A DNA stretch of 32,000 bases from Candidatus Iainarchaeum sp. (GTDB taxonomy: Archaea; Iainarchaeota; Iainarchaeia; Iainarchaeales; DTGL01), in assembly GCA_038886995.1 (NCBI GenBank), contig JAWALG010000001.1, positions 14,635 through 46,634 of the forward strand, read 5' to 3'. Made by a program: the position numbers and the translations under genes. The notes under the pieces were generated by a model. It was not told the DNA's origin and did no database searches. It saw only the letters and a program-made list of their open reading frames with translations. Shown piece after piece: positions 6,773-29,129 of this stretch (position 1 is its first letter; each line of letters begins with the position of its first letter).

Positions 6773-6792
6773 AAAATCAGCGGTAGGGAAAA

Positions 6793-7203: not shown

Positions 7204-7207
7204 GCAA

Positions 7208-7588
7208 ATGCTTCAGAAAGGCAGCATTTCAATAAATGTAATGATTTACATAGGCGTTGCCCTTGCTTGTGGCATTGCTTTGTTTTGGTTTTTGCAGAAT
7301 TTCTTCAGCGCACAGATGCTTTTTGAGAAGATGGACAATGACTTAATGCATATGGCCTCAAGGATCAATGAAAACTGCGATTCTAACTATTTTTTATTTT
7401 ACCACAACCCAGTAATAGAAGAAGGTAAAATTGACTTCAACAAGGACTCTGCATGCATGGAAAATAGAAATGTAAGGCGATGTGTAAAGCTTCTCTGCGG
7501 CCCAGAGTTTTTGGTAAGCTTCAAGCTTGAGGACTTAAACATAATAATTTTTGAGAAAGCTCAGACCTTAACAATCTGGACGCAATAG
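7208..7588 (+). CDS. pilin-like protein (126 aa)
   Basis: ATG at 7208 sits just after the TAA of the previous gene at 7201-7203. MLQKG|SISINVMIYIGVALACGIALFWF is a class III-like leader. There are 4 extracytoplasmic Cys. Confidence 0.55.
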   Translation: MLQKGSISINVMIYIGVALACGIALFWFLQNFFSAQMLFEKMDNDLMHMASRINENCDSNYFLFYHNPVIEEGKIDFNKDSACMENRNVRRCVKLLCGPEFLVSFKLEDLNIIIFEKAQTLTIWTQ

Positions 7589-10955: not shown

Positions 10956-11492
10956 GTGGTGCCTAAATTTAAGCCAACTGGCTTCTTTTCATCAGCTTTG
11001 GTTGTTATTTTTACTGCTGCATTAATTTCTATAATCGCATCTTATGTTAGGGAGCTTGCATTATTGAGAGAAGCCCACATAACAGCCATTGAAATGGAAC
11101 AAGCCAGCTTTGCAAGGTTTCAGGTGGAGGAGAATATTTCAAAAGTAATAAAGGAAACATTAGAATCAGAGTTATCAAAAAACAACACTGACTCGGTTAT
11201 TCTTAACAGCATTGTTAGCAAAAAGGTTTCAGATGTCTATGAGAGATTCAAAAAGCATTTTGGATGCGAGTTATACATAACTGATGGCACTAGCAGATAC
11301 CCTTTCACAGGCCTCAACGAACTATCCAGAACCATTGTATTTGATTCAGATGGCCTTACCATAGCAGAATATACTTACACTGGCGGCGCCATGAAAAACA
11401 AAAGCGTTGTTTGCAAAATACAGAAAGGCAGTGCATATGCTTTTGCATCACTAGTTCCAGGGTACACTGTGAGGGCAACAAAAGTTGGTTAA
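10956..11492 (+). CDS. pilin-like protein B1 (178 aa)
   Basis: GTG start with GGGG about 8 nt upstream. The leader is MVPKFKPTG|FFSSALVVIFTAALISIIASYV, a G|F cleavage-type motif followed by a hydrophobic helix. Confidence 0.6.
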   Translation: MVPKFKPTGFFSSALVVIFTAALISIIASYVRELALLREAHITAIEMEQASFARFQVEENISKVIKETLESELSKNNTDSVILNSIVSKKVSDVYERFKKHFGCELYITDGTSRYPFTGLNELSRTIVFDSDGLTIAEYTYTGGAMKNKSVVCKIQKGSAYAFASLVPGYTVRATKVG

Positions 11493-11493
11493 G

Positions 11494-11865
11494 ATGCATA
11501 AGAACATAGCACTAAAAAATCAAAAGGGTGTCGCAGCACTTGAAATGTTGCTATGCATAATGCTGGTAATAGTACTGCTCTCAATTGCATTGGAAAGCAT
11601 TCAGAGTACTGGAAAAACTTCTTATGAAAAGCACAAAAGATTAGAGGCATATGCTAAAGCAAAAAGTTGCAGCACACTAGTGGATTCGCACTACACAAAC
11701 CCACAGGTAAGTGCTTCCTTGGGGATTGATTGTGCAATTTTTGAAGGGGCAGTTGGAAGCGATTACAATGGAAGCTTTGTGTATTCAGAGATATTCTCTG
11801 GTGCAACAATAGTCACGAAGAAGCAAGGTACCGAGGTAAAGGTTCATGGTACGCACTACAAGTAA
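11494..11865 (+). CDS. class III signal peptide pilin B2 (123 aa)
   Basis: ATG at 11494 sits right after the previous TAA. The leader is MHKNIALKNQKG|VAALEMLLCIMLVIVLL, with KG at -2/-1 and E at +5. Confidence 0.65.
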   Translation: MHKNIALKNQKGVAALEMLLCIMLVIVLLSIALESIQSTGKTSYEKHKRLEAYAKAKSCSTLVDSHYTNPQVSASLGIDCAIFEGAVGSDYNGSFVYSEIFSGATIVTKKQGTEVKVHGTHYK

Positions 11866-12307
11866 AAAAGGCATGTTCTTTGCCTTAGACCTCTGTACAG
11901 CGTTCATAATAATACTCCTTGTTTGTTTTCTATCATTTTTCGTTTTTGTAAGAGTATCACAGTTCAGGTTAATACGCAGCAACTTTTTCGAAAATGAGCA
12001 TAACGCACTTTTTGTGGATTCGCTTCTCAAAAGAAGCGTCGATGAGAATGGCTTTGCAGATGTAAGCTTTGATGAGCGGCGCGTTCTTGAGAATCGTGTA
12101 GCTGACTTTGAAGTGGCATTTGAGAAAAACAGGGAAAACCTCCTCAGGAACAAGGTTATTGCATTAAAGCTAAGCAGCAATGAGATTGTTTTGGATAAGG
12201 AAAAAATTTCTGAATGCAGAGACATGGCTATATTCAGGCGAGCATTTTTGCTCAAAGGAAAATTTAGCATTTTGGAGGTGGCCTTTTGCAATGACACAAA
12301 GCATTAA
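11846..12307 (+). CDS. pilin-like protein B3 (153 aa)
   Basis: The leader is MVRTTSKKG|MFFALDLCTAFIIILLVCFL, with GAGGT upstream. It overlaps the previous gene by 20 nt. Confidence 0.55.
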   Translation: MVRTTSKKGMFFALDLCTAFIIILLVCFLSFFVFVRVSQFRLIRSNFFENEHNALFVDSLLKRSVDENGFADVSFDERRVLENRVADFEVAFEKNRENLLRNKVIALKLSSNEIVLDKEKISECRDMAIFRRAFLLKGKFSILEVAFCNDTKH

Positions 12308-12659
12308 CGGCTTTGTATTCACAATGGAATCTTCTATTTCAGCAATGCTTTTCGCAGTAGTTGCGTTTTCTGCATTGAGCATATTTTATTTTAGCGAAGG
12401 TCCTAGAACAGAGGAGCTAATAATATTGCAAAAAGAGCACGACCTGTTGAAGATATGGCTTTTGCAAAGGCCTACTAAGGAAGAAATGGTAAATGATGCG
12501 AAACAGATATTCGGAGAAAGATTTTCACTAATCACAGATGGGATAAAAGTTTTTGATGGAAACAAAAGCAGAGGAAATTCAAATGCGATATCAAGCAAGC
12601 TTTTGGTTATAGACAAAAACCTAAAAGAAACGGAAATAATTCTTATAGCATATGATTGA
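12291..12659 (+). CDS. pilin-like protein B4 (122 aa)
   Basis: Internal ATG at 12291 with GGAGGTGG upstream. The leader is MTQSING|FVFTMESSISAMLFAVVAFSAL. It overlaps the previous gene by 17 nt. Confidence 0.6.
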   Translation: MTQSINGFVFTMESSISAMLFAVVAFSALSIFYFSEGPRTEELIILQKEHDLLKIWLLQRPTKEEMVNDAKQIFGERFSLITDGIKVFDGNKSRGNSNAISSKLLVIDKNLKETEIILIAYD

Positions 12660-12661
12660 GT

Positions 12662-13069
12662 TTAGCAGTTTTGCACCTTTAAAAAAATAGCATCTTTTTG
12701 GCGCTTAAGCAAAAAGCAAGAGGTTTTATTCAAAGAGAGGGTGCTATTTGAAGAGATTACTTTAAATGCAGTATCAACATTAATGTCAGAACCATTGACT
12801 GAAAGTGTTATAAGCCCAGGCCTTATTGAAAAGTTCCAATCTTGCAAGGGATTGCATCTAAGTTCAAGTTCAGAGCCCTCGGAAAGTTGTTCCATTAGCT
12901 TTATTGAGCTTTTAAGCTCTGAGGCAAAAAGCTTTGCATTTGCCAAATCAATTGCTTTAATGGATTTGCTATAGGCCCTACTGGCTGAAGGTAGAATAAG
13001 GCACATGGCAGCAATTGCCACGGCAAGCACTATCAAAAACTCCAAGGAAATTTGCGCTTTTTGGTTCAT
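12662..13069 (-). CDS. class III signal peptide pilin B5 (135 aa)
   Basis: The leader MNQKA|QISLEFLIVLAVAIAAM is the canonical archaeal Q-x-S-x-E-[FY]-L-I pattern. The protein ends in ...KVQNC. Confidence 0.75.
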   Translation of the reverse strand: MNQKAQISLEFLIVLAVAIAAMCLILPSASRAYSKSIKAIDLANAKLFASELKSSIKLMEQLSEGSELELRCNPLQDWNFSIRPGLITLSVNGSDINVDTAFKVISSNSTLSLNKTSCFLLKRQKDAIFLKVQNC

Positions 13070-16346: not shown

Positions 16347-16802
16347 TTAGCCGCATGTTCCGACTATTGGCTTTGCACCGACTAGCTTCTTATCATAGGT
16401 ACTGCCTTCAATTCTATACGTTATTATAAGAGGGTACTGATAGCCTGATCCTGCATTACACCCTAAACCTGAAAAAGTCAGTGATGAAAGAGTTTTTGAT
16501 TCACCTGCATTTAAAACCAGATCATTCGCTGATGCTACCTTGCCATTTAGGTTGATATCTATAACAGTTATTTTTTCAGTACCTACATTCTTAAGTGTAA
16601 AGTTGCCCGTATTACCACCGATCTGCCAGTCCGTTACTGCTATTGGTGAAGTTCCTTGCCAATAGGCCTTGCTCTGTTGTTCTGTTATGGCTCCGCCAAG
16701 GCCTGGGAACCAGCCCATCACTCCTGCAACAACAAGTGCAATTATTATTATTACAGCCAAAATAATCAAATACTCGGTTGTTCCTTGTCCTCTATTTTTC
16801 AT
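16347..16802 (-). CDS. class III signal peptide pilin, stand-alone candidate major pilin (151 aa)
   Basis: The leader MKNRGQG|TTEYLIILAVIIIIALVVAGV is the canonical archaeal prepilin N-terminus. A GGAGGT SD lies 7 nt upstream of the ATG at 16802. A beta-rich globular part carries a Cys pair (GLGCNAGS ... VGTCG at the C-terminus). Confidence 0.8.
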   Translation of the reverse strand: MKNRGQGTTEYLIILAVIIIIALVVAGVMGWFPGLGGAITEQQSKAYWQGTSPIAVTDWQIGGNTGNFTLKNVGTEKITVIDINLNGKVASANDLVLNAGESKTLSSLTFSGLGCNAGSGYQYPLIITYRIEGSTYDKKLVGAKPIVGTCG

Positions 16803-16955
16803 CACATTACCTCCTTACAGTATTGTTTAAGTAATATTTATTGATACACCGGAGTTTAAAATACTTACTTTTTGCCAAATTGGTTTAAATCAGGCCTTTA
16901 AACGCTTTGTTTTTATTGATAATCAGCAAAAATATAGGTAGCAACCGGTGTCCTT

Positions 16956-17762: not shown

Positions 17763-17813
17763 AAAGCTTAGATAAGATTATAAAGCAGTTTAAATAATAT
17801 ATTCTTGGTGAAT

Positions 17814-18134
17814 ATGATACTGCTGTATGCATTTGTGGTTCTTCTTTATATCTTGGCATTTGCCATAACACTTGCAATATGCAAAAAGCTATATGGCGGT
17901 GGCTTTTCAATGGCCTTGCCATACCTTATATCTGCAGTAGGCCTGTTCGCGGTTGTAAACATAATAAAGCTATTTGCAAGCGTCAATGGAGTTCCTTACA
18001 ACATAACTGATGCACCTGACCTTTGGGTCAGCATAGAGATAGTTTATATTCTTGCAGGCGTAATGTTTGTCTCAATGCTCTACCAGTTTTATCACACCAG
18101 CTATGTAACACGCGGCTGGGAGGAATGTAAATGA
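17814..18134 (+). CDS. small 3-TM membrane protein (106 aa)
   Basis: Three hydrophobic helices. I preferred the ATG at 17814 over the TTG at 17805, with TTTAAATAATATA upstream. It overlaps the next gene as ATGA. Confidence 0.5.
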   Translation: MILLYAFVVLLYILAFAITLAICKKLYGGGFSMALPYLISAVGLFAVVNIIKLFASVNGVPYNITDAPDLWVSIEIVYILAGVMFVSMLYQFYHTSYVTRGWEECK

Positions 18135-18445
18135 TTGAGCCAATGTTCTTTTCTCTAATAGCTGGCATAAAACTTGGAATTTTCCTAATAGCTTTTTTCC
18201 ACTCAATAATAGTTGCTAGGTTTGCGAAGCTAAAGGAGTTGGAACTTTTCATATCAGTGAGCTTAATCTATGTCTCAATTGCAGCAATAGAAGTTGTATA
18301 CATTTACCAGCATTTTGGAAAAATACCCAATGCAATTCCTGAGCAGTTTGTAATTTACAGCGGCCTTTTTCTTGACGCTATAGCAGCCATAGGCATAATA
18401 TGGACTCTCCTGTGGATAAACAGGGATATAAAGAAGTGGAAGTAA
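18131..18445 (+). CDS. small 3-TM membrane protein (104 aa), apparent paralog of the preceding gene
   Basis: It has the same TM1-basic loop-TM2-(G-x-P-x-N)-TM3 layout: VNGVPYNIT in the first protein versus FGKIPNAIP here. Confidence 0.5.
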   Translation: MIEPMFFSLIAGIKLGIFLIAFFHSIIVARFAKLKELELFISVSLIYVSIAAIEVVYIYQHFGKIPNAIPEQFVIYSGLFLDAIAAIGIIWTLLWINRDIKKWK

Positions 18446-18448
18446 GTC

Positions 18449-19003
18449 GTGGTTTTGGTGGCAAAAAAGATCGACTTTGCTTCAATAGCCGAGGACCAAA
18501 TAACCCTTTTCATAGTGCCAGCCAAGGACTATGTTGAGGTTGACAATGAGCTTCTTCATTATTTCATAAATGTTAAGAAGATGGGCTGCATATATGTTGC
18601 TGCAAACAAACCGGCACAGCTTGTAAATAAAATACTAGAGAATGCAAAGGTAAACACTGAAAAGATATGGTACATTGATTGTGTCTCAGGAAGGGTTTCT
18701 TCGCCACACAGGATTGAAAAAGTTATTTTTCTTGAAACACCGAGGGACCTAACAAACATGAGCATTGCAATAACAAATTTTGTAAAGAACATGCCTGAAA
18801 AAAGCAAGATGCTTTTCATAGACAGCTTGACAACGCTAACAATCCATAACGACATAAACACTATTGCTAAGTTTACCCATTTCATAATAAACCAAGCAAG
18901 GAACTGGGGCGTATCAATGGCCCTGATATCAATTGAAGAAGAGGCAGAAGCAGAGCTTATAAACAAGATATCCATAATTGTGGATAAAGTTGTAAAGCTT
19001 TAA
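18449..19003 (+). CDS. RecA/KaiC-fold domain protein lacking a P-loop (DUF835-like, predicted inactive)
   Basis: MLFIDSLTTL resembles the KaiC-family Walker B strand (hhhhDS). The expected Walker A position reads LFIVPAKDYVEV, with no GxxGxGK[ST]. GTG start. It is the third gene of the membrane-protein operon. Confidence 0.5.
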   Translation: MVLVAKKIDFASIAEDQITLFIVPAKDYVEVDNELLHYFINVKKMGCIYVAANKPAQLVNKILENAKVNTEKIWYIDCVSGRVSSPHRIEKVIFLETPRDLTNMSIAITNFVKNMPEKSKMLFIDSLTTLTIHNDINTIAKFTHFIINQARNWGVSMALISIEEEAEAELINKISIIVDKVVKL

Positions 19004-20052
19004 TAAGATGCTAAAAGAATTCCTCTAAGGAAAATCCTCGCGAAGAAGAAAATCACTGCAGAAACGAGGAATATTGCTGGAAAATATTTAAGGCCGAATT
19101 TTGCTTTGCCTCTGGAGATTACTCCCATAAACGCGCTCGCAAATAGAGAATTTCCAAAAAGGAGCAAATATGCTGCAATGCTCATGAAAGCCGGGTCTAT
19201 GCTTATGCCCGAAGACAAGAAACCGAGGTTGAACGATCCGCTTGTGTCCCTTGCAATATCTGCTTGCATATTCGAAAGAAGCTCTAGGAAAATAACTGAA
19301 ACAGAAAGAAGCACCGGTGTCATTATTACAACAATGAAAAGAAGAAACATCTCATACATCTTGGTGCCTGATATTAGCGCTTTTTTAAGTTCTTGTGTTT
19401 GCCTCATGTCTTCTGCTGATGTCTCAAGAAGCTCAGCAATTTTGCCTCCAGCACGCATTGACTGTATCATGAAAGGCACCATTTGCTTAAGGTTTTCTGA
19501 GTCAATACTTTCAGAAAGGGCTTTAAGCGACTCTGTAAATGATTCTGTGCCAAGGGATTTTGATGTAGCAATCTTAATCTCCTCAGCCAAAGGACCAAAT
19601 TCTTCCCTTGCAGCGCTCCTGAAAGCAAAGAAAGGAACCATGCCTGCTCTTATGTTGTTTGAAACTAAAAGCATGAAATCGGGCAAAATCTTGTCAACGA
19701 GGTTTGCCCTTGAGTCAATCTTATAATAGAGCATAAGCTGGTATATAACTGCTATGACACAAAATGAAATTATGCCAACGAGGAGAGCAGTTAGGTAAAT
19801 AAGCCCGGTTGGAAACAATGATGAAAAAAGACCACTAAAAACAGTTAGGGGCAAAAGGAAAAACAAAATTGATAAAAGTATTGCAAGGAGAAGCTTTCGC
19901 CCAATATATAGATCAAAATCGCCTTTTATTCCGGCATAAGTTAGCATCTGGTACAAAACCCTTTGCCTTATTTTTGTGGGAACTGCTCTGCTTAGCCCTA
20001 AGCAAACCCTTCTATAGAAGCGTTCAATTGACTTGGAAAGACTCCCGTTCAA
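19000..20052 (-). CDS. T4F platform protein, TadC/FlaJ C-half-like (350 aa)
   Basis: A cytoplasmic helical T2SS-F-like segment (LPDFMLLVSNNIRAGMVPFFAFRSAA...SLKALSESIDSENLKQM...MRAGGKIAELLE) is flanked by TM helices. It overlaps the upstream gene by 4 nt. Confidence 0.75.
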   Translation of the reverse strand: MNGSLSKSIERFYRRVCLGLSRAVPTKIRQRVLYQMLTYAGIKGDFDLYIGRKLLLAILLSILFFLLPLTVFSGLFSSLFPTGLIYLTALLVGIISFCVIAVIYQLMLYYKIDSRANLVDKILPDFMLLVSNNIRAGMVPFFAFRSAAREEFGPLAEEIKIATSKSLGTESFTESLKALSESIDSENLKQMVPFMIQSMRAGGKIAELLETSAEDMRQTQELKKALISGTKMYEMFLLFIVVIMTPVLLSVSVIFLELLSNMQADIARDTSGSFNLGFLSSGISIDPAFMSIAAYLLLFGNSLFASAFMGVISRGKAKFGLKYFPAIFLVSAVIFFFARIFLRGILLASY

Positions 20053-20939
20053 GTCAAAAACACCTTCGGAACTCGGCTTTTAACAAAGCCGATTATTGAT
20101 AGCTGTATTGCAAATGAAAGCACTACTATAAATAAAATTGTTGCAGGACCTATTGATGCACCTGCAAGTGAAGAAAGTATGACGATAAATGTAATGCCTA
20201 AGCTTGGTATGGCTGCTGCAAAAAGCATATACATCAAAACCCACACATTGAGTTCTGCGGAATAATCCCTTATAGCCCTTTCTTGCTCTTTCACAAGCAT
20301 TGCTACAATTGACTGCAAAGCACCTTTAACAGAGGCACCGCTTCTTATGGCGCTCAGCAACTGCCAGCAGGTCTTTTTTAGATGCTCAGAGCTTGTCTTT
20401 ATTGCCATCTTTTCAAGGGCTTTTGCTTCTGATTCGCCAGCATTTATCTCCTTTACAACATACTCAAATTCTTCCGAAACACCAGCATAGCCTGACTTAG
20501 CAACATAAACTAAGGTATTGTAGAGGCTTATGCCAGAGCAAACCTGGACATACATTGATTTTACCGCAAAGAGGAGGTTATTATCTATGGTCCTTGCTCG
20601 GTTATTCGCTATTATGCGCGGATAAAAAACATGCAACAGAAAGAACACAACGCCAAATATTAGACCAAAGAAAAGTGCACTAACAAGTACTGAAGCATCA
20701 AATTGCAGGGATCTTAAAAATAAAAGCGTAGCAAACAAGGCAAAAAAAAGCGCAAAGTATGCAAGCGCTGAAAAAAAAGCAGCAGTAAGGTATTTTTCTG
20801 GGTCAATTTTTATGCCAGCTAGGTGCAAATCATATTTAAGCGGATAGAATAAGTCACTCAGCTTTTCACCAATCCAAAGAAAACGCCTATTGATCCTGTT
20901 TGCGCGTTCAATTGAGAAAAGCATGAACTTTACGCGCAT
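20049..20939 (-). CDS. T4F platform protein, TadB/FlaJ N-half-like (296 aa)
   Basis: The T2SS-F-like segment is IDNNLLFAVKSMYVQVCSGISLYNTLVYVAKSGYAGVSEEFEYVVKEINAGESEAKALEKMA...LLSAIRSGASVKGAL, flanked by TM helices. Confidence 0.75.
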   Translation of the reverse strand: MRVKFMLFSIERANRINRRFLWIGEKLSDLFYPLKYDLHLAGIKIDPEKYLTAAFFSALAYFALFFALFATLLFLRSLQFDASVLVSALFFGLIFGVVFFLLHVFYPRIIANNRARTIDNNLLFAVKSMYVQVCSGISLYNTLVYVAKSGYAGVSEEFEYVVKEINAGESEAKALEKMAIKTSSEHLKKTCWQLLSAIRSGASVKGALQSIVAMLVKEQERAIRDYSAELNVWVLMYMLFAAAIPSLGITFIVILSSLAGASIGPATILFIVVLSFAIQLSIIGFVKSRVPKVFLT

Positions 20940-20940
20940 C

Positions 20941-22848
20941 TTATGCCTCCAAAAACATTGCTGGCTTTTTATTCTGCTTTGCTGCCTCTAAAACCTCATC
21001 TGGATTGGCGTAAAATGCCTTCATTATGCTGCCAACCTGGTTTATATCGCTTACGTTGTTGTTAAGCATCCACTCTATGATGTGGGCCCTACCATCAAGG
21101 TCTTCGGCAATTTCCTGTTCAGTGAGGCCTGTGTGCAGATTAATGTTCCCAACAAGCTTAGTTGGCTTGTTGAGCATATCCCACTTATCAGTCCTTGGAG
21201 ACCATTTGAATACAGTGTTTATTCGCAACTGTGCTCCTGTTGTTCCTGTCTCAATCTCGCAGATTTCATAGCTACGCCTTCTGTTCGTTTTCCTATCCCT
21301 GTACTGCACTAGTATGAGATCAAGACCTTCAACCTCTAGCGGAGGCAATGATATTGGTGGCTCCAGCAGGCGTCTTAAAACCTGTTGGCCTGAGTTTGCG
21401 TGCAGCGTACTGTATACGCTGTGGCCTGTGTGCAACGCTTCAAACAATACCTCTGCTTCTTTCTTCTTTCTTATCTCACCAAGGATTATTCTGTCAGGCC
21501 TCATCCTAAGTGAAGCATGCATAAGGTCAAGCATTTTAACCTCGCCAAGGCCTTCAGGGTTTGGGTTCCTTGTTGTCATTGGCACCCAGTTCCACTGAAG
21601 GTGGCTTGGAAGCATTATTTCGCGCACATCTTCTATTGAAATGATTCTGTGGTAGGGTGGCATGAAAACGCACAAGGCATTTAGCATTGCGGTTTTTCCT
21701 GAAGCCGTGCCGCCTGCAACAAGCATGCTCATTTCGTATTGCATTGCAAGCCAGAGCAAAGAGGCCATCTCTATGCTAAGCGTATGCCTTACGCCAATTA
21801 AATCAACAATTGTCCAAGGCCTTCTTGCAAAGCGCCTTATTGTTAAGGTGTTTCCAAAGGAAGATATTGGGAATAGAGAGGCATGGACCCTGTCGCCAGT
21901 AATTATGTGGGCATCGAGCAGCGGATTGAGCGTTGTTATCTCTCTGCCAACTTTCCTTGCAATTTGTGAAGCATAGTTTGCTATTGCATCCTCAGAAAGA
22001 GGCATTATATTTGTTCTCATCCAGCCGTATTCCTTGTGGTAAACAGTAATGTGCGTTTTAGAGGAATTTATTGCTACTTCTTCAAGGTCATTATCACCCA
22101 TTATTAGTTCAATTATGCCAAGGCCATACATTTCATGTAGAAGCAGCCCTGCAAGGATATCCTGAAGTTTAGGGTCTGAGCCGAAATACTCCTGAAGGAC
22201 CTTTTTGGCCTCATCAAAGTATCTTCTCTTGAGCTCTTGGCTTTTCTTAGTATCGGTTATTTCTGAAACCTCAACAGGCACGTGCTCAACAATTTTGTTC
22301 TTTATTTCATCAAGGAATATTTTAGTATAAGGCCTAAAGGTTGGCGGAATCAGGTTGTAGTAAAGCATTCGGTCCTCTGTGGAGCGAACAATTTCAACAC
22401 GCACTGGCACATTATCAACTGAATGTTTTTTTTGCTCAACTTTCTTGCCATCAAAAACAAAGAGTTTTGGTTCTGTAATAAGGGTAAGAAGCACGACCCT
22501 CGGGCGCTTGATGACTGTTGTGGGGTAAACAAGCTTTACAACGCTTGACATCTCAAGGATCCTGCCTATGTTTTCTACGGCATCTATGCTGAGACCAAGC
22601 TTGCTAGCGAGCTCATTCAAGGACGCGCTTTTCTTCACCTTGAGTATATCTACTAGAGAGTCAACTGGCGTAGTTATTGGGTCTCTTAAGTCGTCATAGT
22701 CATTTTGCTTTTTCTCTTTTTCTTCAGTTTGGTGCTTTGGGCTATAATAATGCTCTTCTTCCGCATTTGGTTCTTCCTTAGGCCTAAGTGGAAGAACAAT
22801 ACTTTGGCCTTCTTCTGAAGCTTTTACTATTTTGCTCTTTTTCTTCAC
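20941..22848 (-). CDS. type IV filament assembly ATPase (FlaI/ArlI/TadA-like) with an N-terminal charged region plus a wHTH-like domain
   Basis: Walker A is VAGGTASGKTAMLNAL, followed by IISIEDVREI. Walker B is RPDRIILGEIRKKKEAE and the His box is GHSVYSTLHAN. GTG start with AAGGTG 7 nt upstream. The N-terminal 120 aa are extra. Confidence 0.9.
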   Translation of the reverse strand: MKKKSKIVKASEEGQSIVLPLRPKEEPNAEEEHYYSPKHQTEEKEKKQNDYDDLRDPITTPVDSLVDILKVKKSASLNELASKLGLSIDAVENIGRILEMSSVVKLVYPTTVIKRPRVVLLTLITEPKLFVFDGKKVEQKKHSVDNVPVRVEIVRSTEDRMLYYNLIPPTFRPYTKIFLDEIKNKIVEHVPVEVSEITDTKKSQELKRRYFDEAKKVLQEYFGSDPKLQDILAGLLLHEMYGLGIIELIMGDNDLEEVAINSSKTHITVYHKEYGWMRTNIMPLSEDAIANYASQIARKVGREITTLNPLLDAHIITGDRVHASLFPISSFGNTLTIRRFARRPWTIVDLIGVRHTLSIEMASLLWLAMQYEMSMLVAGGTASGKTAMLNALCVFMPPYHRIISIEDVREIMLPSHLQWNWVPMTTRNPNPEGLGEVKMLDLMHASLRMRPDRIILGEIRKKKEAEVLFEALHTGHSVYSTLHANSGQQVLRRLLEPPISLPPLEVEGLDLILVQYRDRKTNRRRSYEICEIETGTTGAQLRINTVFKWSPRTDKWDMLNKPTKLVGNINLHTGLTEQEIAEDLDGRAHIIEWMLNNNVSDINQVGSIMKAFYANPDEVLEAAKQNKKPAMFLEA

Positions 22849-22892
22849 TTAAAACACCTTTAGTCAATATATCTCATACCATATTAATAAAC

Positions 22893-23738
22893 TTATCCGC
22901 TGAAAAGCGTAACTTCAGAAGACCATTTCGAGTTGCCCATAGCAATGTTGAGATCGCAAGGCCAATATATTCTGACTGGGTTTGTGGCTTTTATAGAAGC
23001 ACTAAGGTTTAAGTCCAAATTCCTTTCAGATAAGTTGTTTTGGACTCTTATTGCACCAGTCCCCCCAGCAATGCTTCCGAAAGAAACATTAATGTCTCCG
23101 CTTAAATCCTTGAATTTTATAATGTATTCTTTGTCATCAGAATTTGATGCATTGCAAACAGTTTCAAGAGGAAGTCCGCTGGCATCTCTCAACCTCAAAA
23201 TAATCTTTGTAGTGCCCAGGTCACAGCTCCACTCAATCGAATTTTCATCATCATAATAACCACCAGAGAAATAAAGATTTATGTCATAAGAGTAAGCTTC
23301 AGTATCAGATGATGGGGCATAAAATAGAACATAGTTTTCATCAATGCTGCGCACGTATCTGATTCCATTTGAAAATTGTAGCTCAGTGGAAGGAGTTAAG
23401 TTGCACATGGAAATTTTAACATTTCTCTTTTCGGAGTATGGCCCTTCAATGAATCCCTTCCAGGAGCTTATATTGCTGTGTGAGGTCTTTATTGGAATTG
23501 AATCTTGTATTTTTATCTCATAAGAGTTTGCAGAGCTTTCAGCAGATATTCTAAAGCCAAAGACGCTTTTTGTGTCTTCAGCAATATCTGAAGCAATGTC
23601 AGAAACCTTTAATGCAGATGTGCTCTCTAAAATAAGCTTTTGTTCTGCCTGGTTTGACCTTAAATAATATACTGATGCGATTAGAAGCACTGAAAGCAGT
23701 ATTGCAACTGAAATCGTAACAACAAAGCCCTTTTTCAA
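22893..23738 (-). CDS. pilin-like protein C1 (281 aa)
   Basis: The leader is MKKG|FVVTISVAILLSVLLIASVYY. A large beta-rich body follows, with 4 Cys. Confidence 0.6.
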   Translation of the reverse strand: MKKGFVVTISVAILLSVLLIASVYYLRSNQAEQKLILESTSALKVSDIASDIAEDTKSVFGFRISAESSANSYEIKIQDSIPIKTSHSNISSWKGFIEGPYSEKRNVKISMCNLTPSTELQFSNGIRYVRSIDENYVLFYAPSSDTEAYSYDINLYFSGGYYDDENSIEWSCDLGTTKIILRLRDASGLPLETVCNASNSDDKEYIIKFKDLSGDINVSFGSIAGGTGAIRVQNNLSERNLDLNLSASIKATNPVRIYWPCDLNIAMGNSKWSSEVTLFSG

Positions 23739-23744
23739 AAAAAA

Positions 23745-24158
23745 TCACCTGTACCAGGCAAGTACCTCTGCAAGGTATGCCTTTCCTGTTTTATTGGAGA
23801 AGAAGCTCCTCTTGTATGAGGCCCTCTCAGTATACTTTGAAATGCAGCCAACCTTGTATGTGCTAAAAAGCACACCGTTGATGTCTTCAGAGCTATAAAT
23901 CCTGATTTCAAGGCAAAGCCTCCGCGGAGAAACATTAATTATTGTACTAAGCTCAGTCATTTCATTTTCATCAATTGCTCTTTCGAAATAGCCGCCTTTT
24001 TCAAGAGCTGCCCCTATGTCGGAAGCGAAGTCGTAAAGTGCAGCGCTTTGGAAAGCGCTGAAGCTTATGCCTGAGAAATAAAATGTAACTATGCCGAGAA
24101 GAATCATTAGGACAGTAAGAGAGAACAATGCGTCCATTGAAAGTACAAAGCCCTTCAC
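23745..24158 (-). CDS. pilin-like protein C2 (137 aa)
   Basis: The leader is MKG|FVLSMDALFSLTVLMILLGIV. It shares an ATGA overlap with the upstream gene. Confidence 0.6.
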   Translation of the reverse strand: MKGFVLSMDALFSLTVLMILLGIVTFYFSGISFSAFQSAALYDFASDIGAALEKGGYFERAIDENEMTELSTIINVSPRRLCLEIRIYSSEDINGVLFSTYKVGCISKYTERASYKRSFFSNKTGKAYLAEVLAWYR

Positions 24159-24676
24159 TCAAAAACCCCCACATCCACAAAGACAACAGCATTGTTCAAA
24201 AGGCCTGCCCTACTGACCTTTGCAATCGCGGATTCCTGCGTTTCTGAAGCACCAATAGAATAAAGAGTGCTGCCTGAAGTATCAGTAACCTTAAGCACAA
24301 TATCGTATTTTTGCAATCCGAGAATTTCTTTTAGAAAAGCATAATTCTCATCAGCAAGCTTTTCAAAGCGTTTTATTTTTTCTTCTGATAGGACGTTCGG
24401 TTCTAAAGCTAGGCCTATTGCCTTGATGTTTTCATCTGGTAGTGTGTGCCAATTACTTGGAATTCCTTCGGAGACAACAAGCATTTGCGCTGTTCGCCTT
24501 GCAGCATATTCTCTGTCTTGAATTAGTTGGGCTTCATTGATGCGCATAGAAGCCAAGTTTGAATAACCGTAAACAATTACAAGCGCTGCCACAAACATTG
24601 CGGAAGCGAAGATAAAGTCGCTAGTGAAAAGCTGGCCTTTTTCACTGTGCGGCGGCAATTGAAATTCCTCCGCCAC
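24155..24676 (-). CDS. pilin-like protein C3 (173 aa)
   Basis: The leader is MAEEFQLPPHSEKG|QLFTSDFIFASAMFVAALVIV. Its start lies 35 nt inside the upstream gene. Confidence 0.6.
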   Translation of the reverse strand: MAEEFQLPPHSEKGQLFTSDFIFASAMFVAALVIVYGYSNLASMRINEAQLIQDREYAARRTAQMLVVSEGIPSNWHTLPDENIKAIGLALEPNVLSEEKIKRFEKLADENYAFLKEILGLQKYDIVLKVTDTSGSTLYSIGASETQESAIAKVSRAGLLNNAVVFVDVGVFE

Positions 24677-25034
24677 TGTTTTTTATGAGTAGCTCTTTGC
24701 CCTGTACTGCTTGCGGTGCGTTAACATCCGGCGCAATTATAAATTCACTTACATACTGGCCTTGCCATTCAACGAAAACCCTGTTCTTAGCAAAAGATAT
24801 GTTGTAGTCGCCAAAACTCCTGAGAAAAAGTGATTTTTCCGTGCCATTGCCGCCAAGATAAACTGCATTTATTTCAGATGCAAGTGTCCTTGCAAGAAGC
24901 TTTGCTTCCTGGGTCTTTTTAGATTGCATAAAAACATCGTGCTGGCCTGATGCAACCGAAAGCGAAAAAACAAAAATCAATAAAAAAAAGGAAAGAAGAA
25001 CCATAAATTCAACAGACGCCTGAGCTTTTTGCAA
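24642..25034 (-). CDS. class III signal peptide pilin C4 (130 aa)
   Basis: TTG start with AAGGTGA 4-5 nt upstream. The leader is (M)QKA|QASVEFMVLLSFFLLIF. Confidence 0.7.
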   Translation of the reverse strand: MQKAQASVEFMVLLSFFLLIFVFSLSVASGQHDVFMQSKKTQEAKLLARTLASEINAVYLGGNGTEKSLFLRSFGDYNISFAKNRVFVEWQGQYVSEFIIAPDVNAPQAVQGKELLIKNSGGGISIAAAQ

Positions 25035-25055
25035 AAGGTCACCTTAAATATTTTA

Positions 25056-27233
25056 TCAGCCACATTTGTAGTCGATAGGCCATGGTGGCGTTGTCAATAT
25101 GCTCCCATCCGAAAACATAAAGTGAATTGTAAACACGTCGTTTGAATTTATAGTGCCATCAAAAGTGATTTTTGATGTTTGAGACCTTATGACTTCTCCA
25201 GACTCTATTACAAATCCACCCCCATCTTTTATTGGGAACCACGCTCCAGGTGGTGCTTTGCCATTTTTCAAAACACCATTCTCATCAAAGTACTTTTTAC
25301 CGTCATATATCGTTACTTGGTTTTTTATAAAAAAACTCACAGATGCTACTTTAGCATTACTGTTAAAATCTACTTTCATTCTTATTAGATTTAGATCTAC
25401 TGGATAACTGTTCCAAAAAGTCCACCATTCGAGACCGCCACTGCTGCTTATACAAGCTGGCGACCATGAGAAGTTTAACATGTCAGCGTATGTTGCAATC
25501 TTTATGCTCAAATTAGAGTCATCAATGTTTGCATTGCTCTGGCCTGTGATATTAGCATTAAATTGGCCCGTTGCATTTTTGTTTGCGTCAACCCTGACTG
25601 TTATAAGATTGCAGTCGCCACCTTGCAAAACACCTAAGCTTGAAGGTTCTAATGAAATGGAGATCAAATTGTTTGGATCATTAAATACTTGGTAGGAAAA
25701 GTTTGCATACTGAAGCGGACTGAAGCCGGTGTTGCAAGCAAAAATCTCAAGCTCTTGCGCGGAATCTGGAAGCATAGTGAATATTGTAACCTGCTGCCTT
25801 TCTGGGAAAAGCGATAGGAAGCCGTTTTTGTCTGGCAGTGACAGAGTCCTTATTGAAATCCTTGATGTGTCAGAGTTTATGCTGCTTAGGCCTTCGATAA
25901 GGCCATTGTAGTCGCCATTTGCATCTTGTGGTACGCTTATTGTTATTTTTACAGGTTCACAGGCTCCTCTCTGAAGAGGCGCAATGTTTGTTGGGCTTAT
26001 TGAAACCCAGTCATTTGCGTCGCGCTCCATTGAGCGCAAAAGGTTAACATCATCAAGGTCTTTAAGCCCTAAGTTGCAAGCATAGATATTGACATCCTCA
26101 GTAGAGCCCTTAAATATTGAAAGTGGATAATAGTCCGGGAAAAGGTACAGTTCGCCATCTTCTTCTGGTAAGGTAAGAACCTTTATAATAAGCACAGATG
26201 AGTCACTGTTAACACTGCTATTGCCATAAACTGTGCCAGTATAAATGCCATTTGCATCATTTGGAACAGCCATGGTTACTTTAACAGGCATACAACTTTC
26301 TCTCACCAGGGGGGTAATATTTGAGGGGCTAAGTGATATCCAACTGTTTGCGTTGCGGTCCATTGAAATGGAAAGGGTCACACTATTTAGGTCTTCCATG
26401 CCAACATTACATGCGTAAAAATTGATGTCTTGCGTAGAGCCAGCCAATATTGATATAGGGTATTGTTCAGGGTAAAGTTCAAGCCAAGCTTTCTTTATTA
26501 TTGTAGCGGAAACTTCTATTGTTACAGGCACAAATATCTCGTGTGTTTGGTTTGGGGTTATTGCAGTAAAAACTAATGATCCGGGATAAGCGCCTGCTGC
26601 AAACGCATCCGAATAGAAGTTTATGTCAAGTGTCTTTGAGCTACCTGGCTCAAGTTCAAAAGATGAGGTGTTTATATCAAAGTTTGCGTGCGTATGGCTC
26701 CAATTCTTAACTAAAGAAACCTGCGCTTTGCCATCGCCATCATTGTATATTGTGATTGTTTCCTGCTTGTCGCCACCTCTGGAAATATGCACAAAAAGTG
26801 ATGTCTTGTCAAGGTAGATTTCCTCAAGGCCGAAAACAACATAGCCCTCCTTTGCCTCAACCCATACGCGGTGCTCTCCTGGCTTCAGAGGTATTGTGCC
26901 TACTAAGTTAGCATCTCCTTTGGCATAGATATCACTGCCGGCAACATTGAACACTATGCTTGTACCTTCAATGCCGCTTTTGCTTGGGTCAATTGCGCTT
27001 GGCACTGAAAAGAAAACCCTTTTTCGTGCACCTTCGCCTTGCCTATAAACATCATTTGCCGCGTTTATAAGGTCATTGACACTTGTAAGCGCAATCTGCT
27101 GTTGTCTCTCGAGCTGAATCTCGGATAATGAAGTGTTAGAGTATGCAATTATGGCTATAAGAATAACAAGGCCAACTGCAAGGATAACCATAACCTCAAC
27201 TGAGCTTTGGCCTTTTGAACTTTTTGAAAACAT
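25056..27233 (-). CDS. giant class III signal peptide pilin-adhesin (725 aa) with tandem beta-sandwich repeats
   Basis: I preferred the ATG at 27233 over the GTG at 27242. The leader is MFSKSSKG|QSSVEVMVILAVGLVILIAIIAY. After it come one related domain, three about 111-aa repeats and a distinct 143-aa C-terminal domain ending ...IDYKCG. Confidence 0.8.
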   Translation of the reverse strand: MFSKSSKGQSSVEVMVILAVGLVILIAIIAYSNTSLSEIQLERQQQIALTSVNDLINAANDVYRQGEGARKRVFFSVPSAIDPSKSGIEGTSIVFNVAGSDIYAKGDANLVGTIPLKPGEHRVWVEAKEGYVVFGLEEIYLDKTSLFVHISRGGDKQETITIYNDGDGKAQVSLVKNWSHTHANFDINTSSFELEPGSSKTLDINFYSDAFAAGAYPGSLVFTAITPNQTHEIFVPVTIEVSATIIKKAWLELYPEQYPISILAGSTQDINFYACNVGMEDLNSVTLSISMDRNANSWISLSPSNITPLVRESCMPVKVTMAVPNDANGIYTGTVYGNSSVNSDSSVLIIKVLTLPEEDGELYLFPDYYPLSIFKGSTEDVNIYACNLGLKDLDDVNLLRSMERDANDWVSISPTNIAPLQRGACEPVKITISVPQDANGDYNGLIEGLSSINSDTSRISIRTLSLPDKNGFLSLFPERQQVTIFTMLPDSAQELEIFACNTGFSPLQYANFSYQVFNDPNNLISISLEPSSLGVLQGGDCNLITVRVDANKNATGQFNANITGQSNANIDDSNLSIKIATYADMLNFSWSPACISSSGGLEWWTFWNSYPVDLNLIRMKVDFNSNAKVASVSFFIKNQVTIYDGKKYFDENGVLKNGKAPPGAWFPIKDGGGFVIESGEVIRSQTSKITFDGTINSNDVFTIHFMFSDGSILTTPPWPIDYKCG
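25488..26483 (-). repeat. three intragenic tandem repeats of about 333 nt (111 aa each) within the giant pilin
   Basis: Positions use track-ORF numbering. They are aa 254-364 (LELYPEQYPISILAGSTQDINFYACNVG...), 365-475 (LYLFPDYYPLSIFKGSTEDVNIYACNLG...) and 476-585 (LSLFPERQQVTIF...EIFACNTG...). Repeats 1 and 2 share 60 of 111 identical positions in my hand alignment. Confidence 0.85.
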
Positions 27234-27297
27234 ACTTAACACTATTATTATAACAATAGGAAGTTATTAATAATAACGATTATTGCAAATAGCCAAC

Positions 27298-28248
27298 TTA
27301 GAAAATCTCAACATCTGGGTAGACCTTTATTCCGTTTGCTTCAAAGTCCAATGCAAGAACCTTATTTGTGTGCCTTGTGCCGCGCATCTTCAATATTTCG
27401 CAACAATGAACTCTAGGCCCTTTTTCGCCTTCTTTTCTGTAATACAAAGCAATAATTGCATCTGAAAGGAAGCCAAGCGAATCTGCCTTTGTCAGATGCG
27501 TGTCAGCAGGTGTTTCAGAAATTACAATGGTTGTGGTCCCCCATTTATGCAACAGATCAAAAAATTCAAGTATGCTTTGCCTTTTCACATATTCATCATG
27601 GAACAAAAGCGCATATGAAGTTATTGAATCAACAACAAGGCGTTTGGCACCAATTTCATTTATTGCATCCTTTATTGGGCCACCACCCTCCTTCATCAGT
27701 TTTTCAACCTGGTGCGGCCTATACTCCAAAACTCTCAAAAGATTCTTCTGCTCCAAAGCCCTAAAATCCCAACCAAAAACAAGCGCATGCCTATAAAGTG
27801 ACTCCTTGTCTTCTTCAAAGGTTATGTAAATGCCTGGCTCTTTGCTTACAGTAATGCCATAGTACAAAAACTGAAGTGCAAATATTGTCTTGCCTGTGCC
27901 TGGCGCACCAACAAAAAGCACTACTGAACCTTTTTCAAAGCCACCCTCAATTAGCTCATCAAATGACTCAACACCCGTGGAAACCCTTTCTATAACTTTT
28001 TGCGCTGGCTTATTCTCTGGAATTTTTATTTCACCTAACTGCTGTGCGCTCTTGCCTAATATAACATTATCAAACTTTCGTGCTTGCTGAACCTGCTGTG
28101 CTGCTTCCTGCTTGGCCTCTTTTTTTGCAAGGTCTTCTGGCTTTATCTCTTGAAGCATCTCTTCCTTTTTTGAGCCCTCTTGCTTGTGTTCAGCACCAAA
28201 GGATTGAAATATTTTGCCAATGCCTTCTTTCTCTTGTTTTTCTGGCAT
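27298..28248 (-). CDS. single-domain KaiC/RadA-like (COG0467-type, ArlH/FlaH-like) ATPase with a disordered K/E/Q-rich N-terminal extension
   Basis: RVSTGVESFDELIEGGFEKGSVVLFVGAPGTGKTIFALQFLYYG contains the Walker A. Walker B is RLVVDSITS, followed by TTIVISE. A GGTG SD lies 6 nt upstream. It is the first gene of the locus C operon. Confidence 0.8.
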   Translation of the reverse strand: MPEKQEKEGIGKIFQSFGAEHKQEGSKKEEMLQEIKPEDLAKKEAKQEAAQQVQQARKFDNVILGKSAQQLGEIKIPENKPAQKVIERVSTGVESFDELIEGGFEKGSVVLFVGAPGTGKTIFALQFLYYGITVSKEPGIYITFEEDKESLYRHALVFGWDFRALEQKNLLRVLEYRPHQVEKLMKEGGGPIKDAINEIGAKRLVVDSITSYALLFHDEYVKRQSILEFFDLLHKWGTTTIVISETPADTHLTKADSLGFLSDAIIALYYRKEGEKGPRVHCCEILKMRGTRHTNKVLALDFEANGIKVYPDVEIF

Positions 28249-28356: not shown

Positions 28357-28893
28357 TTATTTCTCTTCTACACGCTTTATAAGCTCTATTATTGACTTTG
28401 TTCTGGAAGCGCTTTTATAAACTGGCTCGGTTGTGAAAAACATGTTTCGGTCCCTTATGAAGTTATATATCCCTGGAATGCTCTCGTAGTAGTAGCTTTC
28501 AATGTGCTTCCTGTAGGACTCAACATCTTTGTAGACATGCCTTGTAAGTAGATTCCAATTGCCAGAACCAAGCATTCCAGAAAACCAGTAAAGGTGATGG
28601 TCCTGCATTGCCTTATCAATGAATGCATTAAATGCTTCTTTTTGCGATAGGTCTGCTTGAAGAAGCATCGTTACCTCAAGGTTATAGCCAAGTGACCTGA
28701 AATTTATTTTTGGACCATAACCCTGTATGATGCCTGCTTTATTGAGGAAGTCCAAGGAACTGATTATTGTTGCCTTGTGGAAGCCAGTATGCTTCTTTAT
28801 TCGCTCTATGCTTGGTCTTACAGACCCCTCTTTGAGAAGAGCTTCAAGAATCTTAACACGCACAGGGTCAACAACAGATTTTTTTAATACCAT
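28357..28893 (-). CDS. Lrp/AsnC-like transcription regulator (wHTH plus ligand-binding-like domain, 178 aa)
   Basis: The start is at the internal MVLKKSVVDP, because the TATA-like TTTATAA lies inside the longer track ORF. VRVKILEALLKEGSVRPSIERIKKHTGFHKATIISSLDFLNKAGIIQGYGPKINFRSLGYNLEVTMLLQ fits the Lrp/AsnC HTH-to-RAM transition. Confidence 0.6.
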   Translation of the reverse strand: MVLKKSVVDPVRVKILEALLKEGSVRPSIERIKKHTGFHKATIISSLDFLNKAGIIQGYGPKINFRSLGYNLEVTMLLQADLSQKEAFNAFIDKAMQDHHLYWFSGMLGSGNWNLLTRHVYKDVESYRKHIESYYYESIPGIYNFIRDRNMFFTTEPVYKSASRTKSIIELIKRVEEK

Positions 28894-29129
28894 AACATCA
28901 CCAATATGATATAATAGTACATTAATAACAGTTATAAATGTTATTTTTTTACATATCAATTCGATGAATTGCTTTATATGGGTTAGTTAATAATATATAC
29001 GCAAAACCAAAAGGAGGGTTGTTGCAAGAACCAAAGTCGGTTAGAGGGATGGGGCAGCTCACCAGGCTAAAATGGTTTCTGAAGAGGCCCCTTCTTCCTC
29101 TAATACTTTTTCTAATATAAGTGGCCAGT

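Follow-up and report, generated by a model that had tools for sequence, protein, structure and literature searches.

What does a KaiC-like ATPase do at the end of an archaeal cluster of filament genes that carries no archaellin? The question is raised by a 32,000-nucleotide stretch of DNA from Candidatus Iainarchaeum sp. (contig JAWALG010000001.1; hereafter the window), in which a gene for such an ATPase heads a run of genes resembling those for type IV pilus (T4P) assembly. KaiC-family ATPases (arCOG01171, 01174 and 01175) are strongly associated with archaeal T4P loci, namely archaellum loci and those in clade 2 and in subclade 4B, and a regulatory role has been predicted for them (Makarova, Koonin & Albers 2016, PMC4858521). 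The cluster described here is probably the biogenesis locus of a non-archaellar type IV filament (TFF), a pilus of the Iainarchaeota/Diapherotrites (DPANN archaea) with an architecture conserved across DPANN phyla, in which the KaiC-like protein and a degenerate partner, DUF7504, constitute an accessory or regulatory module. Nine consecutive open reading frames (ORFs) run uninterrupted on the minus strand from position 19000 to 28248, a span of 9,249 nucleotides (nt). From the KaiC end to the TadC end, with lengths in amino acids (aa) and arrows marking the predicted signal-peptide processing site, they are:

27298 to 28248, minus strand: single-domain KaiC-family ATPase, 316 aa (Pfam PF06745, 3.5e-56)
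25056 to 27242, minus strand: giant pilin-like adhesin candidate, 728 aa from a GTG start or 725 aa from the ATG at 27233 (NCBI's call, P0121) (Pfam HYDIN/VesB-like immunoglobulin (Ig) 2.9e-9, NEW3 1.4e-5)
24642 to 25034, minus strand: candidate minor pilin pil130, 130 aa, KA↓QASVEF, Glu at +5 (weak Pfam Class_IIIsignal match)
24155 to 24676, minus strand: candidate minor pilin pil173, 173 aa, EKG↓QLFTSDF (no Pfam family; fixed cluster position)
23745 to 24158, minus strand: candidate minor pilin pil137, 137 aa, MKG↓FVLSMDA (no Pfam family)
22893 to 23738, minus strand: candidate minor pilin pil281, 281 aa, the larger, beta-rich member, KKG↓FVVTIS (no Pfam family)
20941 to 22848, minus strand: pilus assembly ATPase of the T2SSE/VirB11 superfamily, 635 aa (Pfam T2SSE PF00437, 3.9e-32)
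20049 to 20939, minus strand: platform half 1, TadB-like, 296 aa (Pfam T2SSF PF00482, 9.1e-14)
19000 to 20052, minus strand: platform half 2, TadC-like, 350 aa (Pfam T2SSF PF00482, 5.1e-13)

The junctions between these genes, read in the same direction, are +55, +21, -35, -4, +6, +44, +1 and -4 nt, negative values being overlaps. An original prediction, made from the letters alone, had described an all-minus run with overlaps or gaps of at most 55 nt and this gene order, and the ORF and family assignments bear it out. It had also counted ten genes; the interval holds nine, as does the prediction's own list, and the intergenic gaps are too short to hide a tenth.

Three elements place the cluster among type IV filament systems: a T2SSE ATPase, two T2SSF platform genes and class III pilins with a hydrophobic helix. 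The ATPase has a Walker A motif (GGTASGKT), an Asp box and a Walker B motif (IILGE). Among proteins of known structure in the PDB it matches A. fulgidus GspE (2OAP, 241 bits) better than S. acidocaldarius FlaI (183 bits) and CpaF (135 bits), and it scores 267.8 bits against the NCBIfam FlaI model NF058587, where the cut-off is 550; its orthologues score 274–285 bits. An N-terminal extension of about 230 residues stands ahead of the conserved core. Residues 1–60 are variable, and residues 61–120 are moderately conserved, a possible winged-helix segment with weak matches of the helix-turn-helix (HTH) type. Orthologues of the ATPase are typically 570–640 aa long; two of about 950–1,080 aa (L050, 6444–9293; L052, 5416–8646) imply large extra domains. 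The TadB-like protein has five hydrophobic segments and matches the N-terminal halves of UpsF and ArlJ at about 47–49 bits (NCBIfam). The TadC-like protein, whose gene overlaps that of its TadB-like neighbour by 4 nt, matches the C-terminal half of the ArlJ model. Pfam scans covered 30 window proteins, and among these there was no archaellin (PF01917), ArlF/G, ArlC/D/E or ArlX; nor were any found by homology in the syntenic loci described below. With an ATPase well under the FlaI cut-off and nearer to afGspE, and with no archaellin in the 32 kb available or in the syntenic loci, the earlier assignment to a non-archaellar type IV pilus was upheld.

The KaiC-like protein consists of a variable K/E/Q-rich extension (residues 1–85) and a complete KaiC/RecA domain (residues 86–316), over which the PF06745 match of 190.6 bits covers 229 of 231 model positions. 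Most homologues align over the KaiC domain only (72–79% of the query). Invariant across 37 orthologues are the Walker A motif GAPGTGKT (G114/G117/G119/K120/T121), E146, the Walker B residue D207 (LVVDS) and a K-M-R-G-T-x-H motif; E145, the first Glu of the FEE motif, is at least 90% conserved. Judged by these residues, the protein is probably an active single-domain KaiC homologue. Its best PDB matches by sequence are KaiC CI domains (about 180–208 bits), followed by the single-domain proteins PH0186 (129 bits), PH0284 and SSO2452, and no ArlH structure appears among the matches at E < 1e-5. It had been called KaiC/ArlH-like. The KaiC half of that name is secure (PF06745); the ArlH half is not, as the ArlH model NF052589 gives 29.9 bits against a cut-off of 215 and the FlaH model PRK06067 gives 46 bits against 194. 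On these scores the protein is KaiC-CI-like, and ArlH-like at the superfamily level only. It differs equally from circadian KaiC, having one domain and 316 aa rather than CI plus CII and about 500 aa, with the NCBIfam circadian models scoring 113–154 bits against cut-offs of 408–546. There was no KaiB-like protein among the window proteins scanned.

A second KaiC-like protein is encoded at the opposite end of the cluster:

18449 to 19003, plus strand: degenerate KaiC/RecA-like protein of family DUF7504 (PF24336), 184 aa (Pfam 30.2 bits, cut-off 27)

Its gene is convergent with the TadC-like gene and overlaps it by 4 nt. Below threshold, the protein also matches KaiC (24.2 bits), DUF7090, DUF835 and Elongator Iki1. 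It has no Walker A (no GxxxxGK[ST] motif) and no catalytic Glu; the Walker-B-like strand hhhhDS is kept. In an hhalign alignment of DUF7504 with KaiC (E 1.6e-4), IYVAANKP is paired with IYITFEED and MLFIDSLT with RLVVDSIT.

Conservation was assessed in 80 genomic loci around KaiC-like homologues (L numbers in this text), one genome per species, whose ORFs were searched with the window proteins; a phmmer score of at least 290 bits defined a KaiC orthologue. DUF7504 homologues occur in 36 of the 49 loci with such an orthologue. The gene stands immediately beside KaiC in 28 of 49 pilus-linked loci, in 23 of these downstream of KaiC, on the opposite strand, between KaiC and the pilins; in L005 and L080 it is next to TadC, as in the window. 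By this measure DUF7504 is a conserved member of the cluster that the original prediction had overlooked, and the conserved unit would be an active KaiC-like ATPase together with a degenerate KaiC-like partner. Extra pairs, each of a distant KaiC paralogue with DUF7504, recur near the main cluster (L006, 3626–5410; L026, 3436–4859; L041, 7447–9517; L079, 7407–8763; L081, 1447–2854), which suggests that KaiC and pseudo-KaiC form a reusable two-protein module. In L079, a Nanoarchaeota contig, the paralogue/DUF7504 pair is found between the ATPase and TadB.

The nearest public genomes are Iainarchaeum metagenome-assembled genomes (MAGs), GCA_026413945.1 (KaiC 84% identical) and GCA_038895395.1 (KaiC 70% identical), the latter with gene order exactly as in the window; the lineage is also present in sequencing run SRR27730019. 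Over the wider sample, a giant-pilin homologue lies within 2.5 kb downstream of KaiC in 39 of the 43 orthologous loci with enough sequence. Of the 24 loci with 9 kb or more of downstream sequence, 17 contain the T2SSE ATPase; in six of the seven loci without it, the downstream flank is taken up by pilin genes of 1,200–2,290 aa, so the ATPase may be located further out. The full order, KaiC, giant pilin(s), pil130, pil173, pil137, pil281, ATPase, TadB, TadC, is seen in Iainarchaeota, in MAGs classified no further than ‘archaeon’ and in Micrarchaeota (L069, L074, L075 and L080, the last being the complete genome of Ca. Fermentimicrarchaeum limneticum), and a rearranged order in L082 and in the Nanoarchaeota contig L079. 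The expected synteny of KaiC with pilus genes in relatives was thus found in Iainarchaeota, Micrarchaeota and a Nanoarchaeota contig. In a neighbour-joining tree of KaiC domains (no support values), pilus-linked sequences fall on both sides of a single monophyletic unlinked clade, so the linkage looks ancestral and lost once.

Other families conserved upstream of KaiC were considered as pilus parts and set aside; they are housekeeping genes (tRNA-intron endonuclease, XPD-type helicase, tRNA-synthetase-like) or have no Pfam match. The DPANN-type KaiC gene also occurs on contigs of MAGs labelled as a Chloroflexota bacterium (L012, DAOWAC010000089.1) and as Thaumarchaeota (L009, L065), with pilus genes present on the L009 contig too; these contigs are probably mis-binned, rather than transfers.

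Gene neighbourhood and co-transcription have to be kept apart here. The nine genes had been described as an operon headed by KaiC, a description that the relatives do not sustain: in 23 of 49 linked loci an opposite-strand DUF7504 gene separates KaiC from the pilins, so it is the neighbourhood that is conserved and not co-transcription. Within the window, TATA-like AT-rich strings occur both upstream of KaiC and in the 55-nt gap between KaiC and the giant pilin, so the sequence alone does not decide whether KaiC is co-transcribed. The giant-pilin gene has no Shine-Dalgarno sequence and may be leaderless or translationally coupled. A scan for sigma-70 promoters and intrinsic terminators returned counts equal to the shuffled expectation and was discarded, these models being inapplicable to archaea. 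A T8 run at the pil137/pil281 junction was considered as a terminator of the archaeal kind and likewise rejected, since the 70% relative does not conserve it and T-runs like it also occur inside coding regions. Upstream of the KaiC-like gene by 108 nt, on the same strand, is a gene for a winged-helix (ArsR/HTH_36-like) protein (28357–28959, minus strand), conserved at that position only in the closest relatives (L001–L005), which could be a local regulator.

All five pilin candidates of the cluster have an N-terminus resembling a class III signal peptide, [KR]-G/A ↓ Q/F followed by about 20 hydrophobic residues. Nothing in the orthologue alignments of the four small families is better conserved than these motifs. 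For pil130, [KR]G↓Q[IV][ST]xEF and the hydrophobic helix are conserved in an alignment of 24 sequences (the window and 23 orthologues). The corresponding motifs are KG↓Q[IF]F[ST]xD in pil173, with orthologues from 32 loci, and KG↓F[VI]ISxDA in pil137 (29 loci). In pil281 (27 loci), always the last pilin ahead of the ATPase, [KR]G↓F and the hydrophobic segment are conserved. Pfam detected no substrate-binding-protein domain in any pilin.

The giant pilin (NCBI protein QW400_00240, identical, from a ‘Candidatus Diapherotrites archaeon’ MAG, on a 52-kb contig) combines a class III signal peptide (KG↓QSSVE) and an N-terminal helix with four Ig-like domains and a C-terminal beta domain of about 130 residues. 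Three of the Ig-like domains are tandem repeats of about 111 aa (254–365, 365–476 and 476–587; 54% and 30% identical), preceded by a further one at about 150–245. An AlphaFold2 model, built on a 5-sequence alignment (an index-limited homologue search gave 6 proteins), has a mean predicted local distance difference test score (pLDDT) of 64; it contains a helix at 14–68, the Ig-like and C-terminal beta domains are mostly at 60–89, and the N-terminal 150 residues are unreliable. Foldseek searches with this model returned generic Ig arrays only (HYDIN-type, cadherin, PrgB, SbsB), so no specific ligand can be inferred. Homologues in relatives stand directly downstream of KaiC, are often duplicated and range from about 350 to about 2,290 aa; giant pilins of about 1,760–2,290 aa, also often duplicated, are found in L029 (12596–19459), L037 (12615–18896) and L035 (9431–14710). 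The giant pilin is the most variable part of an otherwise fixed cluster. The tip or priming role first proposed for it fits a conserved block of one giant and four minor pilins; its placement at the tip, and adhesion through it, are what we infer by analogy with the bacterial complexes compared below.

A likely component of the shaft lies outside the interval of the original prediction:

16347 to 16805, minus strand: probable major (shaft) pilin, 151/152 aa, RG↓QGTTEYLIILAVIIIIALVV (Pfam Class_IIIsignal, 7.5e-5)

This gene (NCBI protein QW400_00180, identical, from the same MAG) is 2.2 kb beyond TadC, behind a plus-strand block made up of an NFACT-like gene, two small membrane proteins and DUF7504. 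It has its own AT-rich upstream region and a perfect AGGAGGT ribosome-binding site a few bases before the start (within 16806–16850). In 13 of the 17 relatives with room, the TadB/TadC pair is followed directly by a homologue, often tandemly duplicated. For a pilin, conservation of the family is unusual, with 135 full-length homologues at 40–79% identity (42–79% among those aligned), and its class III motif is conserved as well. The AlphaFold2 model (pLDDT 89.9) shows an N-terminal helix and a beta sandwich, and the top fold matches in the PDB are archaeal type IV pilus subunits: Aap (8Q30) and those of P. calidifontis (8FK7), S. islandicus (6NAV and 8TIB) and P. arsenaticum (6W8U). Pfam gave no archaellin match. 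Because its gene comes after those of the platform in relatives and its model has the fold of an archaeal filament subunit, the 152-aa protein is likely to be the shaft pilin of this system.

Two further genes belong to the plus-strand block:

17805 to 18445, plus strand: two small membrane proteins, tm109 and tm104, 109 and 104 aa, with three predicted transmembrane segments each, in a tight operon with DUF7504

The junctions of this operon (17805–19003; tm109, tm104, DUF7504) are a 4-nt overlap and a 3-nt gap, and as a whole it resembles a split membrane-anchored KaiC-like protein of the DUF835 type. As conserved partners of DUF7504 the two membrane proteins were rejected, being present only in the closest full-length relative (L003/L005), and their membership in the pilus system is uncertain.

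A mechanism can be outlined from these parts. A PibD-type (A24) prepilin peptidase encoded elsewhere would cleave the class III signal peptides, as expected from established TFF biology, and the T2SSE ATPase, seated on the TadB-like and TadC-like platform, would pull pilins from the membrane and polymerise them. The four small pilins and the giant Ig-repeat pilin would make up a priming or tip complex with the variable adhesin at the distal end, and the shaft would be a polymer of the 152-aa pilin. The KaiC-family ATPase and DUF7504 would act as a cytoplasmic, nucleotide-dependent accessory or regulatory module of the pilus. Two modes can be envisaged: a KaiC ring may dock on or gate the assembly ATPase, as ArlH does with ArlI, which is perhaps the more probable mode, or the module may act further upstream, in signalling or expression control, as CirA does (PMC10983859). 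The first mode could involve the N-terminal extension of the ATPase, since accessory proteins are proposed to dock on extensions of this kind (Sivabalasarma & Albers 2026 preprint, 10.64898/2026.04.22.720090). We favour, with fair confidence, a pilus-linked role for the KaiC-like protein, probably that of a regulator.

A narrower proposal would have the KaiC-like protein and DUF7504 form a (hetero)hexameric ring docked on the N-terminally extended ATPase of an adhesion pilus that does not rotate; such a ring would be a motor accessory in the manner of ArlH, but outside the archaellum, and ancestral to at least three DPANN phyla. We hold this specific version to be unlikely. If true, the cluster would preserve the pre-archaellar state that gave rise to the ArlH–ArlI partnership, and the ring could be the switch of a single-ATPase archaeal pilus, between assembly and arrest or retraction, during host attachment.

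Several observations count against a pilus whose machinery includes the KaiC/DUF7504 pair. The KaiC gene is not adjacent to that of the T2SSE ATPase, with five pilin genes between them, and in many relatives KaiC and the pilins cannot share a transcript, as DUF7504 intervenes on the other strand. For one monophyletic clade of 19 KaiC homologues (L054–L068, L070, L072), neither pilus genes nor class III proteins occur within 10 kb. These homologues are 49–53% identical (for example L054, 7872–9842; L055, 9935–10732); in 16 loci the KaiC gene is divergent beside an XPD/Rad3-type helicase, and housekeeping genes are nearby. A KaiC-like protein can therefore persist without local pilus genes. The kinship of DUF7504 with KaiC has an hhalign probability of only about 51%. 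In the giant-pilin model the Ig-like and C-terminal domains are of moderate quality, and confidence is low for the pilin-like N-terminus. Finally, no A24-family prepilin peptidase turned up in the scan of window proteins; the 84%-identical relative carries an A24/Arc_PepC gene some 9 kb upstream of KaiC.

Some of these points feed a different account of the pair, in which the KaiC-like protein and DUF7504 never touch the motor and instead form a CirA-like hub whose ATPase or autophosphorylation state sets the transcription or abundance of pilus genes, and possibly other processes. The model is H. volcanii CirA, a KaiC-like protein whose gene lies next to the arl genes, on the other strand, and which lowers arl transcription and is pleiotropic (PMC10983859). 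The window protein is far nearer to KaiC proper than to ArlH, the five genes between KaiC and the ATPase are often joined by an opposite-strand gene, a winged-helix regulator gene stands directly upstream of KaiC in the closest relatives, and the unlinked KaiC clade exists. Yet neither KaiC nor DUF7504 has a DNA-binding domain, the upstream HTH gene is conserved among the closest relatives only, and tight, phylum-spanning linkage to structural genes would suit a part of the machine better than a global regulator. We regard such a hub as somewhat unlikely. It is quite improbable, by our estimate, that the KaiC-like gene is unrelated to the pilus, being for instance a RadA/KaiC-type DNA-repair or housekeeping ATPase with a conserved position beside a pilus island. 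The linkage is kept across Iainarchaeota, Micrarchaeota and Nanoarchaeota although the upstream neighbours change completely, DUF7504 shifts between the KaiC end and the TadC end yet remains inside the cluster, and the association of KaiC with T4P is independently documented in other archaea (PMC4858521). What speaks for an unrelated gene are the 19 loci beside an XPD/Rad3-type helicase, tRNA-intron endonuclease and tRNA synthetase without pilus genes, the presence of some such housekeeping neighbours (clusters c5 and c9) upstream of pilus-linked copies, and the single-domain KaiC/RadA paralogues, such as SSO2452, among the structural relatives.

Two other alternatives concern the filament rather than its regulator. 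The system might be a TFF and not an adhesion pilus: a ‘functionalised’ TFF or short pseudopilus by which the giant protein is displayed or secreted, or a filament with which the DPANN cell takes up DNA or contacts its host. A wide distribution has been proposed for functionalised archaeal TFF and bindosome-like systems (bioRxiv 10.64898/2026.04.22.720090), host contact and DNA import have been put forward as functions of DPANN pili (PMC9563170), and a hypervariable giant pilin that exceeds 2,000 aa suggests host or ligand specificity. A highly conserved pilin of about 150 aa, folded like the archaeal pilins that form filaments, speaks for a true filament, however, and Pfam found no substrate-binding-protein domain in any pilin; this alternative is distinctly unlikely. 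A divergent archaellum, with the KaiC-like protein as ArlH, the ATPase as ArlI, the split platform as ArlJ and the pilins as archaellins, is scarcely credible. The best NCBIfam match of the ATPase is indeed the FlaI model and that of the platform halves ArlJ/UpsF, and the triad of KaiC-like protein, ATPase and platform resembles ArlH-I-J. Against this, the platform is split and the gene order is unlike that of arl operons (PMC4858521). Both models fall far short of their cut-offs (FlaI 268 bits against 550, ArlH 30 against 215), the ATPase is nearer to afGspE than to FlaI, and no archaellin, ArlF/G or ArlC/D/E/X was found among the window proteins scanned or in the syntenic loci. A non-archaellar pilus with a KaiC/DUF7504 module remains the reading we prefer.

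DPANN archaea are mostly obligate episymbionts with tiny genomes. Together with a gene order kept across DPANN phyla, this makes the pilus cluster a strong candidate for a host-attachment apparatus, in which the giant hypervariable pilin is a candidate specificity determinant. The association of KaiC with pili has been known from comparative genomics since 2016 (Makarova 2016, PMC4858521; Xie 2022, PMC9563170), without a mechanism; the original prediction had accurately called it noted and uncharacterised. The cluster offers a compact set for biochemical tests, made up of an active KaiC-like protein, a pseudo-KaiC, an ATPase and a platform in two parts, on the question of whether such proteins act on non-archaellar TFF motors as ArlH does on ArlI. 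For about a dozen genes in these MAGs, the analysis also corrects an annotation as ‘hypothetical protein’.

The window holds two other groups of pilin-like genes. A second pilus locus (locus A, 362–7588) contains a divergent T2SSE ATPase (2798–4462; only 114 bits against the FlaI model), a polytopic protein of 630 aa with about 12 hydrophobic segments (882–2774), two coiled-coil proteins (4459–5732) and four small plus-strand proteins with N-terminal hydrophobic segments (5817–7588). The original prediction had contrasted the split platform of the main cluster with a fused one in locus A. A fused platform is plausible there by topology and position, but went unconfirmed: Pfam T2SSF was undetected, and hhalign against the TadB/TadC profiles gave a probability of about 4%. 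A third group of small pilin-like genes with hydrophobic N-termini (locus B, 10956–13069) has no adjacent ATPase or platform gene; one of its ORFs (12662–13069, minus strand) has a weak Class_IIIsignal match. No tRNA genes were found in the window.

Among known systems, the euryarchaeal clade 2 loci (H. volcanii PilB3/PilC3- and PilB4-type) share much with the cluster. They have a VirB11/T2SSE ATPase extended at its termini, in many loci a pair of tadC-like genes (noted for clade 1 loci too), an all-beta, Ig-like minor pilin that varies in length and is prone to duplication, a PilA-like major pilin that is sometimes encoded apart, and KaiC in or near the loci (PMC4858521). The cluster differs from clade 2, in a comparison by features alone, in its DPANN lineage, its fixed block of four small pilin families, its giant pilin (700 to >2,000 aa) and DUF7504. 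A recent census of TFF distinguishes a System 1 with a split platform, found in methanogens, Thermococcales and DPANN, from a System 2 with extended ATPase N-termini, large adhesin-like proteins and a single platform gene; KaiC is not mentioned in it (Sivabalasarma & Albers 2026 preprint, 10.64898/2026.04.22.720090). Two platform genes, several minor pilins and an adhesin-like protein are shared with System 1, or Epd (Methanococcus, Thermococcales and some DPANN). The Epd major pilin is about 70 aa long and has no globular domain, whereas here a 152-aa pilin carries a beta-sandwich head, and no EppA-type peptidase was seen in the cluster. The extended ATPase N-terminus and the large adhesin-like pilin are System 2 features (10.64898/2026.04.22.720090). 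In its gene features the cluster mixes System 1 and System 2 and adds a pseudo-KaiC, and it is assigned to neither.

ArlH/ArlI and CirA provide precedents for KaiC-like proteins at filament systems (PMC4858521, PMC10983859). In ArlH-ArlI-ArlJ, as here, the gene for a RecA/KaiC-superfamily ATP-binding protein accompanies those for a T2SSE ATPase and a T2SSF platform, and this is the precedent for a KaiC-like ring that modulates a TFF ATPase. The proteins are not orthologous, however; here the catalytic glutamates and a canonical Walker B are kept, the platform is split, KaiC stands apart from the ATPase, and archaellins and ArlF/G/CDE/X were not found. CirA of Haloferax volcanii is likewise a KaiC-family protein encoded beside a TFF cluster, its Walker A is required and it influences surface-filament function; what it affects is the transcription of archaellum genes and cell shape, and CirA itself is not known to be linked to a pilus (PMC10983859).

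A counterpart in the literature is found in Nanohaloarchaeota, whose pilus clusters have two kaiC copies (Xie et al. 2022, PMC9563170). Like the present one, these are DPANN clusters of the TadA/TadB/TadC type with two kaiC-like genes and no prepilin peptidase; they are described at the annotation level only, and their pilins were not identified there. The two kaiC genes are probably the same kind of pair, KaiC with a second KaiC-like protein, as in the window and in L079. On the side of the pilins, the nearest parallels are bacterial minor-pilin/PilY1 complexes and the GspH-I-J-K tip complexes of the type II secretion system, in which four low-abundance pilins and a large non-canonical adhesin are likewise set apart from the major pilin. 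There is no sequence homology, and the analogy lies in gene organisation only; it is because one giant and four small pilins, encoded apart from the major pilin, appear to repeat the organisation of these priming complexes that a priming or tip role is suggested here. Set beside all of these systems, the cluster is distinguished by its phylum-spanning conservation in DPANN and by its paired KaiC/pseudo-KaiC module.

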